From positions 77,996,001 through 78,060,000 of the forward strand of contig OX597816.1 in NCBI GenBank assembly GCA_951406725.2: 64,000 bases of DNA, given 5' to 3'. Position 1 is the first letter of the stretch, and each line of letters opens with the position of its first letter. Source of the stretch: Octopus vulgaris. Taxonomy: Eukaryota. Below, piece by piece: positions 35,541-40,915 of this stretch. The translations under genes and the position numbers were made by a program. The notes below the pieces were generated by a model. It did no database searches and was not told where the DNA came from. It saw only the letters and a list, made by a program, of their open reading frames with translations.

Positions 35541-35728
35541 GTAAAAATTACGTCCATATGTTTTTGCTTCCTTTTGGGATTGGGAGTATTGTTTGATTCC
35601 TGGGCTGAAGCCGGCTGCGCCAGACCTTGCCTTTTGAGTTTCTTTCGGTGTGTCAGAAGCGTTGAAGAAGAATGCTGTAGTGGTTACAGAACTTGCATGA
35701 AAGATGCCTGTGATGTCGCAAATCCATC
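35541..35728 (+). CDS. Exon 2 of the neuropeptide precursor: signal peptide + Cys-rich peptide
   Basis: A long polypyrimidine tract and CAG acceptor end at 35540. The exon encodes VKITSICFCFLLGLGVLFDSWAEA (hydrophobic core, A-E-A cleavage motif) then GCARPCLLSFFRCVRSVEEECCSGYRTCMKDACDVANP. It ends TC|GTAAGT (phase 2), matching the next exon. Confidence 0.85.
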
Positions 35729-37959
35729 GTAAGTACAACTGTTCCACTTTCATATAATTAATCCTTGTATCGAACCCTGATCTGTTGGTTCTCTTAGTTA
35801 GATAGATAGATAGATAGATAGATAGATAGATAGATAGATAGATAGATAGATAGATAGATAGATAGATAGATAGATAGATAGATAGATAGATAGATAGATA
35901 GATAGATAGATAGATAGATAGATAGATAGATAGATAGATAGAAGAGAATAGAAGGAATTTTATAACAGTGCATGACTTTTCGAATAACGTTATTGCCGTG
36001 AGAATACAATGACACCAGATGTGAAGATATTTTGCTCTCAACATCCTATACCGTCTAATTGTGAGTGAAAGTCCGCTTTCGGTAGCATAGCTCCTTAGTG
36101 TCATCAGTAGGAAGACAGACAAGCTAATGAATCACTGTGCAATAGCTCGAATGTAATAAATAACAACCAAGTATCCTTCAACTCAAATCCCACTATCTTA
36201 AGAAGGAAGTACATATCGAACAATGTAGTCCGATATGATCTTTAAAACACAAATCACACATTTTGATCGAAGGATATAAATGGTTAAATCCTTCTCGGTA
36301 CTTCTACTTACTTTATTGACCCCGGAATAATAAAATGTAAATTTGATGCGATAAGATGAGATATTGACAAAATGAAGTGTTTTTGCTGGACACAAAATAC
36401 AGTCCATGGTCTATGGTATACGAAGAATTAGAATGTTTTTTCACTGGATTCTCTGCAGTTCTCAAGTTTACTCTATATCTAGATTAATAGTGGATGTGTT
36501 GCTTATTTCATAATAGATTCATGGTGGATCTGTTGTTTACTTCATTATAGACACTTGCTAACATCAGAGCCTCTATGTGGTCGCTCGATCTGCTAGAAAT
36601 ATCAGTAACTGAATCTCTCTCTCAAAACACACCCTATAGTCTTGGAAAAGAAAGAACTCTCGGGATAATGAAGTTAAAGATGAGAAAATCACAGCTGGAA
36701 CGTCTCTAATCAAAGATTTGCTCAGTCAGAATTCAATCTAAACTAAATAGGGAACAACATATTCCAGTCCTTTCCAATCACAGAGTCTTTGTAGCATCTG
36801 AATTCTGTTCCTTGAGTTCGCAACAACTACAGTACTTCGATATCTAGTTTTCACATATATACAGTAAGATCACTTGAATACAAATCATTGATATTGTTTT
36901 TCTAAAATCGTTCCGTGCTTTAGAGATCTAAGCTCCAGTCTTGAATGTGGAGCAACTTTTACATTTATTGTAGGTAGTAGATATAATTGTTCAAAAGTTT
37001 GAATTGGATACAGATAATTTTAGTAAAAAAAAATGATTAATGCAAATAAATTAAATCACAAATGATGTACAATAATTATTTAATGTATATAAAAGTCAGC
37101 TTTCGAATTTGATCATTTATATTAAAGTTATTTTACACTTTCTTATTAGTCAGTAATGTTTTGTACGAAACAATAATGTTGTTCAGTTCATTAATATTTC
37201 AAGACCTTTTCAATATCATCCATATCATTCCATTAGAATCCTCAAAGTTGTAATACGTACAAGGTGGTTGTCAACTTAACGGTGTTGTGTAAGCTGTTAT
37301 TGATTTTAAATGTCAGCAAGGAAATTGCTGACAGTCATTGCCTTTAACATCTAGGATTACATAGTTTACCGATGATGGTCATACTAGTCTACGAGTTGAC
37401 AGCCACCATGTATGTATCATAACTCTTAGAATTCTAATAAAATATCTTCCATGACAGTATACGAAAGTTTAACATCGTTACGTGTGAACGCAGTTAACGG
37501 CAGCCATTTTAATCGTCTGGCAACACATTTGCATGAGCTTTTCAAACATTTCTTAAATGATTTTACCACGATTAGAATGTGTTGCTTGAGAAAAAGGACG
37601 AGTTTCCTAATTGCCTCGCATTTTCGTAAATGATTAGATAGTTATAGCTGTGTTTTTCCCCAGACAAATAGAAAATCGGCGTTAGTGATACACTTCATAA
37701 AAATTGATGAATGCAATACTAAATAATTATATAGTTAATTTATCTGGCTAGGAATTGTCTCTTAAAATTAATGTCTGAGTACATCATTGTGTATATATAT
37801 ATGTGTGTGTGTGTGTATGTGTGTGTGTGTGTATGTATGTATGTATGTATACATGTATAAAAATATGTGAGATAGAAATTAATTCACGCGACTCTTTATT
37901 TAGAGCCACTACGATAGTTTCGACCCATCATACACCGGTACCTTATATATATAACAAAA

Positions 37960-37997
37960 CTGTCCGACGAACGGGAACGTGAAACTCCGAGTAACAG
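37960..37997 (+). ncRNA. Degenerate type I hammerhead motif
   Basis: CTGT-CCGACGA-ACG-GGAA-CGT-GAAAC-TCCGA-GTA-ACAG. Stems I-III pair, but the core carries a U4C change, so it is probably inactive. Confidence 0.5.
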
Positions 37998-40683
37998 CTT
38001 TTGTTAAATTTCTGCTACTTTTAAATAAAGCATATTACTCTACCTCTGGTATTTGAGTACTCTTTTTTTCCACCTTGTTTCACATTTATGGGTTTACTCC
38101 GGTATATATATATATATATATATATATATATATAAGTATAGACATATATATATATACAAATATATACGTATATAGCATTATGTGCGTGTGTGTGTTTGTG
38201 CTTGTGTGTGTGTGTGTGTGTGTGTGTGTGTGTGTGTGTGTGTGTGTGTGTTTTATTTGTTTAGCACATGACTTGATCAGAGGCAATATGTTAAAACTGA
38301 AACAATTTACATTATAGAAGGGTTATATGAGCCATTTAAATAAACAAACTCCTTTTTATGGACATTTCGCTTATTTCTTAATAACATTATCTGTTATGCA
38401 GACACTTTTGACACTTCATCGTAGATTAAACTTTTAAGACCTAAACAAAAAGTGCATAAAACGGTTTTTGTGTCTTCTTTAAAATGACTTTTCCGACACA
38501 CACACACATACACACACAAACGCACACGCACACACACACACACACACACACACACACACACACACACACACACACACACACACACACACACACACACACA
38601 CACACACACACACACACACACACACACACACACACACATACGAGCTCGATTGCTTTCCATATACTTTTCGTCTACGAAATCCCACTGAAAGTATTGGTAA
38701 ACCTACGGCTGGGAAAAGTAGAAGACTGTACAGTAGTCCCAGCTACCGTACAGTGGGATCGAACTTGGAGCCACTTTGTTGCAAAGCGAACTTCTTAATC
38801 AGACGGCCAGCCATGCCGACACTTCATATGGTTTCGGATAGCATAACTGCACAGAATCACATGCATACGCATTCACATATACACACACAACATAGACACA
38901 CTCATATATATCAAAACATATACACATACGCGCATGCGCATATCCACAAGGGTTCTTTTGTACAGTTTCACTGGAAATATTCTCTTTCTTAGTCAACAGT
39001 GTATTAAGGCGAAGTGGCAGAATTGTTAGAGCATCCAACAGAATAGTTTGCTGTATTTGTTCCGTCTATCATCGCTCTAAGTTCAAATTTCGTTGAAGTC
39101 AACTCATCTTTTCATTCTTTTGGAGTTGATAAATAAAGTATCAGGCTAAGGTGGTGGATTGGTGGAATTGTAAAGGATTTGTGTGAGTTCCGGCTCAGTG
39201 TCTTTTGAGTTCAAATCCCGTCTTCACTAACGGAAAAATAAAACACATCAGTTAAGAATTGCAACTGACAGGTACTATCAGCAATTGAAAAAAAAAGGCA
39301 CTTGAAACATGGTTTCTAGATTCGTTCAGAAGATCAGCTGTGAATATGATGAAATGCTTGATCAAGAATACCCTCCATTTTGGGTTGAGATTTCCATATC
39401 AATTGTGTTACTGTTTTACCAACTTCTTAATGTATCTTATTTTAAACAGAGGGCCTTATAATTTGTATACAACACCTCAGTTAATCCCAAATAGGTATTT
39501 GCCGATGTCAACCCAGTAGTGAGTGCTTATGTTTTACAATGAACACCTAATTTTAATAAGTACTCATCTGTTTATAAAGCAGCTTCTTCTTCATAGTATG
39601 AGTCAACGAAGGTGCCTTTACGTAGTTGCTTTACCTGCTAGGAATAAGAGTCAAAATATTACACAAATTACACCCTACCGTCTTAGAAAATGAAGGGCGC
39701 TTTTGGATAACGTAATCCTGGACACACTATACATAAAATGACGGAGGGGTCACGACTAGAACCGTTATGGTCAAAGGCCTGTTTGGTCAGATTTAAGCAA
39801 GGATTAAGCAACAATATACAATTTCAGATATATTTCTCAGTAAACTATTAAGCTATATTAAACGGCATATTTACCTTGAGTATTTGTTCCGTGGTACTTA
39901 GCAGACACAGAGTTTCCTATAACATGATAACTACTTAAAACACATGGCAGGTATAAATGAATTTGCAGTCATGATAATGCTATATCTGTAGATACAAAGA
40001 GCGGGGATGATTAAGTTAGTGTCTGGCAAAAATTACGTTTCTTTACAGTCCAGCTAAGGATTAGTTTGCCTTTCCTCTTTCCTAATAATATACAACCTCC
40101 TCCACTCCAAACAAACAGTTCTCTCCATATGTTACTGTAGTAAAACCAATATTTCTGTCAACAAAATGTTTTTACAGTTGTTTAATTCTAGATCCTCTCT
40201 GATGAAAGAAGCTGATGGTGAAAGTCGTTCTAGTTGTGAACATTTCATCTCATTTAGAACCACATTTCCTTTTAAGACAGTCAGATATTGTTTGGAGGAG
40301 ATTTGGTTAGTATTTCCAGCTGGTCGGGTTATGACGTAAAAGCTCCCTAGTTGGTTCGTGCCAGAGTTTCGATAACTCTCAAGGTAACAACGGCCTACAT
40401 ATTTCAAAATATAAGGTATCCATGTTGGGCATTTTTGCTCTTATTACTGCTGCAAGTAACATTTATTCAAAATACTGCATAGTATCAGTGTTACAATATG
40501 ATGTTACGCTCATCAGGTAAAAGAAATCAATCTGCTTTACGTATAAATATCTTGTATGAGAAGTTGAGGAAATCCAATCTCCTTACTGTAGACCATCCAA
40601 CTAACACGTTATGGCCTTTGTTTTAGAAAATAGTACCGCAAATTTGAGCTCATTATTATTTTTTCTTTCTCTTTGCTTTTTAG

Positions 40684-40915
40684 ATGCAATGATAATGTCG
40701 GTAAACGAAGTGGCTGGTATAAACGTGGAAGTTGGGACAAACGTGGAAGTTGGAATAAGAAAAGTGATGATCAAACCAAACGCGGCAGCTGGAACAAACG
40801 TTCGGATGAAGAGGACAGCAAACGAGGCAGCTGGAACAAACGACAAGAAACGGAAGACTTCTCTGAAGCAATGCTTAAGAAAGTCCTTAATGAAAACTAT
40901 GGAGTCCACTTGTAA
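40684..40915 (+). CDS. Exon 3 of the achatin / octopus cardioactive peptide (Ocp-3/4, GSWD)-type precursor
   Basis: Polypyrimidine tract + TAG acceptor (40681-40683), phase 2. Encodes CNDNVG-KR-SGWY-KR-GSWD-KR-GSWN-KK-SDDQT-KR-GSWN-KR-SDEEDS-KR-GSWN-KR-QETEDFSEAMLKKVLNENYGVHL*. Repeated peptides between dibasic sites with acidic spacers are the standard precursor layout. Confidence 0.92.

Follow-up and report, generated by a model that had tools for sequence, protein, structure and literature searches.

The closest described relatives of the gene analysed here are the molluscan GSWN neuropeptide precursors. In the oyster precursor Cragi-GSWN (Realis-Doyelle et al. 2021, PMC8398477), a signal peptide is followed by eight cysteines (order C-C-C-CC-C-C-C), a Gly-Lys-Arg site and then GSWN between dibasic sites. 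The conserved cysteines and the possible amidation of GSWN precursors are part of that publication, in which the domain is interpreted as a pair of peptides, and its presentation of the family lists no cephalopod. The family is in print under a second name as well, since in cephalopods its members appear as achatin-related. The squid 'achatin-related peptide' (PMC10172372) and the GSWN/GSWD entries placed among the achatins in the supplement of PMC8557429 include orthologues from Todarodes and Idiosepius with a cysteine spacing identical to that of octopus; the supplement also contains the very proteins of O. vulgaris and O. bimaculoides. The relevant passages of these two papers discuss only the tetrapeptides, and neither naming, in the passages concerned, treats the cysteine block as a single folded product. 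In the literature we found no mature peptide, receptor or activity for the cysteine domain.

The window, i.e., the whole 64,000-nucleotide stretch of Octopus vulgaris contig OX597816.1 under analysis, contains a gene that, judged by its sequence, is a cephalopod member of this already described family (PMC8398477; Table 1). Its precursor combines a signal peptide, called from hydropathy and an Ala-x-Ala end, with eight cysteines, a G-KR signal, three copies of GSWN and one of GSWD. The cysteine spacing is 3-6-7-0-5-4-6 in octopus vs 3-6-7-0-5-3-6 in oyster (by eye, from the published alignment); the gap of four residues between C6 and C7 is shared with squid and solenogastres, unlike oyster. 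The five published GSWN members vary more among themselves (loop of 7-14) than octopus does from oyster. The octopus precursor further differs from Cragi-GSWN in that its loop lacks a dibasic pair and it encodes five tetrapeptides rather than one. The preliminary description had made the novelty of the domain conditional on there being no match to a characterised family; novelty of the family is not supported, as the published family includes both the cysteines and the possible amidation. An achatin identity was rejected given the Ser at position 2 and the presence of the cysteine domain, whereas in the true achatins of the PMC8557429 supplement the second residue is aromatic and such a domain is absent. 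CCWamide and agatoxin-like peptides (PMC8557429) are likewise toxin-resembling neuropeptides with eight cysteines and an amide, but they are C-terminal in their precursors and have an aromatic amide end; the N-terminal position and predicted non-aromatic end (Val-amide) of the octopus domain ruled out this class.

Table 1 Features of the octopus GSWN precursor gene (positions in the window).
Feature	Position	Strand	Remark
Candidate core promoter	17922..17956	+	TATA box 17922-17933, initiator-like TCAGT 17952-17956; sequence only
Candidate exon 1	17954..18033	+	80 nt, ends in start ATG, then GTAAGT; inferred
Signal peptide, residues 2-25	35541..35612	+	hydropathy; within spliced contigs
Cysteine domain, first part	35613..35728	+	C1-C7; both predicted helices
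GT-AG intron	35729..40683	+	4955 nt, phase 2; junction in contigs of 5/7 distinct runs
Cysteine domain, end	40684..40699	+	C8 codon at 40685
Gly-Lys-Arg	40700..40708	+	predicted amide donor and convertase site
Tetrapeptides between dibasic sites	40709..40837	+	SGWY 40709-40720, GSWD 40727-40738
GSWN copies, three	40745-40756, 40784-40795, 40826-40837	+	
C-terminal acidic peptide and stop codon	40838..40915	+	
3' UTR to first AATAAA (41146)	40916..41151	+	

The exon carrying most of the domain has its last letter at 35728, followed by a GT donor; an AG acceptor precedes the next one, whose first letter is 40684. In runs X1, X5, X7, X13 and X15, contigs jump from genome position 35728 to the letters of 40684 onward. 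The X17 contig is unspliced and continues into the intron past 35728, and no contig was obtained for X16, one of the seven distinct runs examined. An unspliced read-through ends the frame after 39 amino acids with seven cysteines only. The eighth is supplied by the exon join, and the earlier claim that it appears only after splicing is thus borne out by the spliced contigs. After splicing, the translation is identical to database protein P0002 (O. vulgaris / O. sinensis) at 139/139 residues following Met; against O. bimaculoides P0001 there is a single residue difference, in the tail. Further upstream, the + strand of the window has two TATA-Inr combinations of this kind, one of which is the candidate promoter, called from sequence. 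The candidate exon 1 holds the sole ATG followed directly by GTRAG on this strand, and would be joined through a phase 0 intron of 17,507 nt. The contigs carry 29-59 additional 5' letters, which, in terms of length, fits within the candidate exon. At the other end, the length of the X1 contig implies a transcript end near 41141. In the 2.8-Gb genome, the coding pattern KR-GSW(N/D)-KR occurred at this locus only (three matches; one in the reversed control).

The 44-residue eight-cysteine framework and the G-KR amidation signal noted earlier are present as described, and no tetrapeptide has a Gly ahead of its basic site. A search of 104 kb in six frames with the pattern of the first seven cysteines matched only this gene and a tandem paralogue 68 kb upstream (0 matches in 50 locally shuffled copies). 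The paralogue keeps the eight cysteines and G-KR, has no GSW peptide and is faster-evolving; the exon-2 dN/dS between the two genes is approximately 0.2, a value near saturation. Database searches did not retrieve the domain sequences of bivalves, gastropods, squid and solenogastres, which were compared by eye, without scoring. In total, 15 sequences from two solenogastres, three bivalves, three gastropods and cephalopods were counted in this way. The preliminary description had set conservation of the cysteine spacing in orthologues as a check, and all eight cysteines are kept in 14 of the 15 sequences, from solenogastres to octopods. The C2-C3 spacing is six in every sequence (15/15), and an Arg lies two places past C3 in all 14 eight-cysteine sequences. 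Of these 14, 11 have a Gly immediately before the first basic site; the exceptions are Argonauta, Neomenia and scallop. In Nucella P0005, C5 and C8 are the two cysteines missing, and the tail is expanded. Between O. vulgaris and O. bimaculoides, the domain shows no change in 44 residues. In bivalves and two gastropods the domain is paired with one GSWN copy, in cephalopods and solenogastres with four or more. Expression of orthologues is nervous, in squid brain and oyster visceral ganglia. The oyster mass spectrometry table has two rows, both for the C-terminal peptide and neither for a cysteine-domain peptide; detection of the C-terminal peptide indicates that the oyster precursor is processed, and the authors describe their method, in the passage concerned, as not directed at very long peptides.

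AlphaFold, given five similar sequences, modelled the octopus domain as a two-helix hairpin (helix 1, residues 4-14; helix 2, residues 18-33) with a mean pLDDT of 84.5 (77-84.5 over the five models; pTM 0.61), and apolar residues of helix 1 are exposed in the model. The index sums C1+C7=35, C2+C6=34 and C3+C4=34 are compatible with an antiparallel ladder. The spacing, together with the joint loss of C5 and C8 in Nucella, suggests the disulfide pairs C1-C7, C2-C6, C3-C4 and C5-C8, of which the first three would form a ladder between the helices and the last would pin the tail. Acrorhagin I, conotoxin Im23a and the nemertean neurotoxin B-IV consist of an antiparallel helix pair held by disulfides, the arrangement predicted for octopus. 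Acrorhagin I and B-IV have a cysteine ladder that would resemble the one suggested here. Amidation, disulfides and peptide release are predictions for the octopus precursor. Conservation and the predicted model support the earlier view of a separate, helical, four-disulfide and probably amidated product.

We consider it likely, with a probability of roughly 0.6, that this gene is a spliced GSWN precursor whose 44-residue eight-cysteine hairpin is cut out, amidated and used as an independent ligand. The domain, lying directly past the signal peptide, would fold as the hairpin and be cleaved at the first Lys-Arg, then converted to a Val-amide, presumably as a single chain in cephalopods. It would likely be co-released with the GSWN/GSWD tetrapeptides and act on a receptor of its own. 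Probable contact points would be the conserved aromatic-x-Cys-x-Arg motif in which helix 1 ends and the aromatic residue that follows the Cys-Cys pair by three places. The single-hairpin reading defines what peptidomics should look for (4840.99 Da, the calculated monoisotopic mass of the predicted amidated four-disulfide peptide) and what to screen against molluscan receptors. The paralogue amounts to a natural experiment in which the domain has been parted from the tetrapeptides, and its retention there without GSW peptides favours such a ligand over a neurophysin-like carrier, as raised in the preliminary description. A carrier or sorting module would fold first and steer the precursor to dense-core granules, or hold the tetrapeptides, without any receptor. 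Every full precursor examined has the domain together with GSWN peptides, true achatin precursors printed alongside in the PMC8557429 supplement are without it, and the exposed apolar residues of predicted helix 1 would suit such a function. However, the ratio of domain to tetrapeptides ranges from 1:1 to 1:4 or more, and 11 of 14 sequences have an amidation signal. Since the domain also persists in the GSW-less paralogue and gave no match to the neurophysin profile (Pfam, E<=10), we regard a carrier as unlikely.

Cleavage in the loop could instead yield two cysteine-rich peptides and a two-chain product, as drawn for the oyster precursor. For octopus we find this improbable, because all seven cephalopod sequences have a single Arg rather than a dibasic pair in the loop past C3. 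This Arg lies two residues from a Cys, at the end of helix 1, and three of the inferred disulfides would keep the halves joined in any case. A role in venom or defence, with the peptide or its paralogue acting as a toxin and not as an internal messenger, is more doubtful still. The gene is nearly invariant and contains neuropeptide repeats. Oysters, scallop, limpet and Aplysia possess orthologues of it, and wherever their expression has been reported it is in ganglia or brain. Residues 1-34 of the model overlay residues 10-50 of acrorhagin I (PDB 6ux5) at an rmsd of 1.4, but this match ties with dozens of generic hairpins. Any case for a toxin concerns the paralogue only.

The likeness to con-ikot-ikot proposed earlier is genuine as far as the motif goes. 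The domain and this saposin-like conotoxin superfamily have in common Cys-Cys-x-x-aromatic-x-x-Cys-apolar, with 6/9 residues identical between C. striatus and octopus and 7/10 between one C. lividus entry and Argonauta. Three entries, picked by eye, have the internal spacing 3-7-7-0-5-3 vs 3-6-7-0-5-3 in oyster, and the authors of the superfamily found no endogenous ancestor. Shared ancestry would imply that one helix pair was duplicated and permuted in cone snails, to which we give little credence. The examples were picked out visually among approximately 55 of the 496 sequences, without any control, and spacings of this kind are a consequence of helix geometry. Furthermore, the superfamily members (PMC10437998, PMC4278219), expressed in the venom gland, are twice the size (86-89 residues), with 10-13 cysteines and four helices paired 1-2 and 3-4, as opposed to 44 residues, eight cysteines and two predicted helices in octopus; the short Cluster 2 class lies outside this comparison. 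The motif-matching stretch spans helices 2-3, and toxin introns are all phase 1, vs phases 0 and 2 in the octopus gene. HMMER queries with the exon, A1 or A2 matched no PDB sequence at E<=10, and fold searches with the octopus model, in which a 44-residue hairpin is a weakly discriminating query, gave no support for kinship. Equally speculative is the extended scenario in which an ancient pan-molluscan four-disulfide hairpin hormone with its own receptor would be the endogenous source of con-ikot-ikot, the fast-evolving octopus paralogue having lost its GSW peptides and been recruited independently, possibly for venom. A true link would answer a stated question on the origin of the toxin superfamily; the evidence here does not establish it.

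In 2000, Iwakoshi and colleagues reportedly described cardioactive tetrapeptides of Octopus minor, among them Ocp-3 with its D-Ser isomer Ocp-4, a study of the tetrapeptide rather than the cysteine domain. Ocp-3 reportedly matches the GSWD peptide encoded here at all four positions, and this locus is the sole source of KR-GSWD-KR in the octopus genome.

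The octopus GSWN precursor gene is real, was correctly read in the preliminary description and is a member of a known family. The peptide claimed there, an eight-cysteine segment (C1-C8) between the signal peptide and the first Lys-Arg (the domain), was present in the window as described: it is split over two exons, reaches eight cysteines once spliced and is followed by Gly-Lys-Arg (G-KR), a predicted amide donor and convertase site. Read without splicing, the frame met a stop after seven cysteines; the spliced product contained a 44-residue stretch with cysteine spacing 3-6-7-0-5-4-6, plus G-KR. 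The join of 35728 to 40684 was carried by contigs of five of seven sequencing runs, whose RNA nature is our guess; of the remaining two, one extended unspliced into the intron and the other gave no contig. We accepted the runs as splice evidence because the joined form itself was present in the contigs. Furthermore, the spliced product is identical to P0002, an uncharacterised protein of O. vulgaris and O. sinensis, and differs from the O. bimaculoides protein by one residue. Both exons lack a start codon, for which the best candidate, judged from sequence features, is a putative upstream exon. Positions 17922-18039 hold a textbook TATA box, an initiator and a candidate exon whose end is an ATG codon, with the next exon 17.5 kb downstream. 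At 34685-34715 and 35326-35370, in intron 1, a short repeat attracted many contigs at high depth; it is probably a SINE-like element, with similar stretches elsewhere in the region.

Features of the GSWN gene, its paralogue and mobile-element remains (window positions unless prefixed G000:C3, which denotes the whole contig)
Feature	Position	Strand	Remarks
Candidate 80-nt exon with start codon	17954-18033	+	Predicted; TATA box and initiator in front
Coding exon	35541-35728	+	Closes at GT donor
Following coding exon	starts 40684	+	AG acceptor in front
Paralogue	G000:C3:77963233-77966032	same as GSWN gene	68 kb upstream, outside window; loci L001, L002, L004-L005
Non-LTR retroelement pieces (RVT_1, zf-RVT)	45023-48037	+	Adjoining (TAA)n tracts
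Decayed copies of these pieces	near 48125-49141; 55928-59662	-; +	
LINE in pieces, endonuclease and reverse transcriptase (Exo_endo_phos, RVT_1)	52865-55887	-	
200-aa frame with GIY-YIG domain	10461-11063	-	

Downstream of the domain, SGWY, GSWD and three copies of GSWN lie between dibasic sites; we take GSWD to be identical with Ocp-3. The first tetrapeptide (40709-40720) is SGWY, not GSWN, in both Octopus proteins, and GSWN stands at the same place in squid. The octopus gene belongs to the GSWN precursor family known from oyster (PMC8398477). The oyster member has spacing 3-6-7-0-5-3-6 and G-KR-GSWN-KR; Lottia, Aplysia and scallop stand in the same alignment (supplement page 32, which has no text title and was recognised by its GSWN and the C-terminal peptide of the mass spectrometry table). 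From squid, an orthologue sharing the octopus spacing has been described as an achatin-related transcript of brain (PMC10172372). The supplement of PMC8557429 files the proteins of O. vulgaris and O. bimaculoides, Idiosepius and two solenogastres among achatin precursors, and all 12 occurrences of RGSWN in that supplement are molluscan. Sequence and family are therefore already in print, and novelty of the family is not supported. What we add is a proposed single-hairpin reading and a tail-less paralogue, and published supplement figures may say more on the domain. Iwakoshi 2000 is cited in PMC4721866, PMC9206679 and PMC11277431; further related papers are PMC4278219, PMC13311285, PMC13542836 and PMC10501145.

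Fifteen sequences were compared, namely six database proteins (P0001-P0006, including the window's own) and nine taken by eye from publications. All eight cysteines were kept in 14 of them, C5 and C8 being missing from the Nucella lapillus relative P0005, and the C2-C3 spacing was 6 in all 15. The loop ahead of the Cys-Cys pair ranged from 7 to 14 residues. An Arg two places past C3 occurred in every eight-cysteine sequence (14/14), and the amidation Gly in 11 of these 14 (missing from Argonauta, Neomenia and scallop). P0005 is a 294-aa protein with a six-cysteine domain and many longer GSWN-containing repeats behind a single Arg. Cysteine ladders are reportedly found in acrorhagin I and B-IV. 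A dibasic pair within the loop was found in the five sequences of the oyster authors' alignment and in Neomenia, and in none of seven cephalopod sequences; it is on this pair that those authors seem to base their view of the domain as two peptides.

The tandem paralogue shares the exon break ahead of C8 and keeps eight cysteines and G-KR, with no GSW peptide. In its O. bimaculoides copy a single divergent tetrapeptide flanked by KR sites persists; the second of these sites is lost from the O. vulgaris copy. Between these two species, 11 of 95 positions differ in the paralogue versus 1 of 140 in the GSWN gene (p 0.0003), an approximately tenfold greater change, and within the domain 6 of 46 versus 0 of 44 (p 0.026). 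Exon 2 of the two genes differs with dN 0.33 and dS 1.7, the latter near saturation. The paralogue's first exon was not found within 7 kb upstream. Elsewhere in the genome, weak PF16981 matches (L009-L011), below cut-off and with internal stops, were taken as chance.

By analogy with standard prohormone processing, the precursor would enter the secretory path, the domain would fold with four disulfides, and convertases would cleave the dibasic sites, releasing the amidated domain together with the tetrapeptides. In the available part of PMC8398477, mass spectrometry showed processing in oyster for the C-terminal peptide alone. We consider that the domain probably acts as a ligand in its own right (probability roughly 0.6). 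A carrier role, as in the neurophysin analogy of the preliminary description, seems unlikely to us: the ratio of domain to tetrapeptides varies, the domain bears an amide signal and is invariant in Octopus, and a paralogue retains it without GSW peptides, all of which favours the ligand. Literature searches found no receptor or activity for the domain, and the accessible parts of PMC5100318, PMC12085718, PMC9501996 and PMC6523705 held nothing bearing on the subject.

A con-ikot-ikot-like motif had been pointed out in the preliminary description. The motif does occur in a C. striatus sequence, sharing 6 of 9 residues with the octopus domain, and in some superfamily members the internal spacing, at 3-7-7-0-5-3, departs from that of oyster by a single residue (PMC10437998). 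These examples were chosen by eye among about 55 of the 496 sequences. Such spacings are favoured by helix geometry alone, and further points speak against kinship: the domain had no HMMER match among PDB sequences, the toxins are double its size, their helices pair 1-2 and 3-4 although the matching stretch covers 2-3, and their introns are phase-1 (PMC10437998). We regard this kinship as quite improbable. Nevertheless, it stays worth one proper test, since the authors found no endogenous ancestor of these toxins.

The window also holds mobile-element remains. The C-terminal motif of the non-LTR element presumably represents an R4/Dong-type endonuclease, and we take the GIY-YIG frame to be, probably, a Penelope-like remnant.
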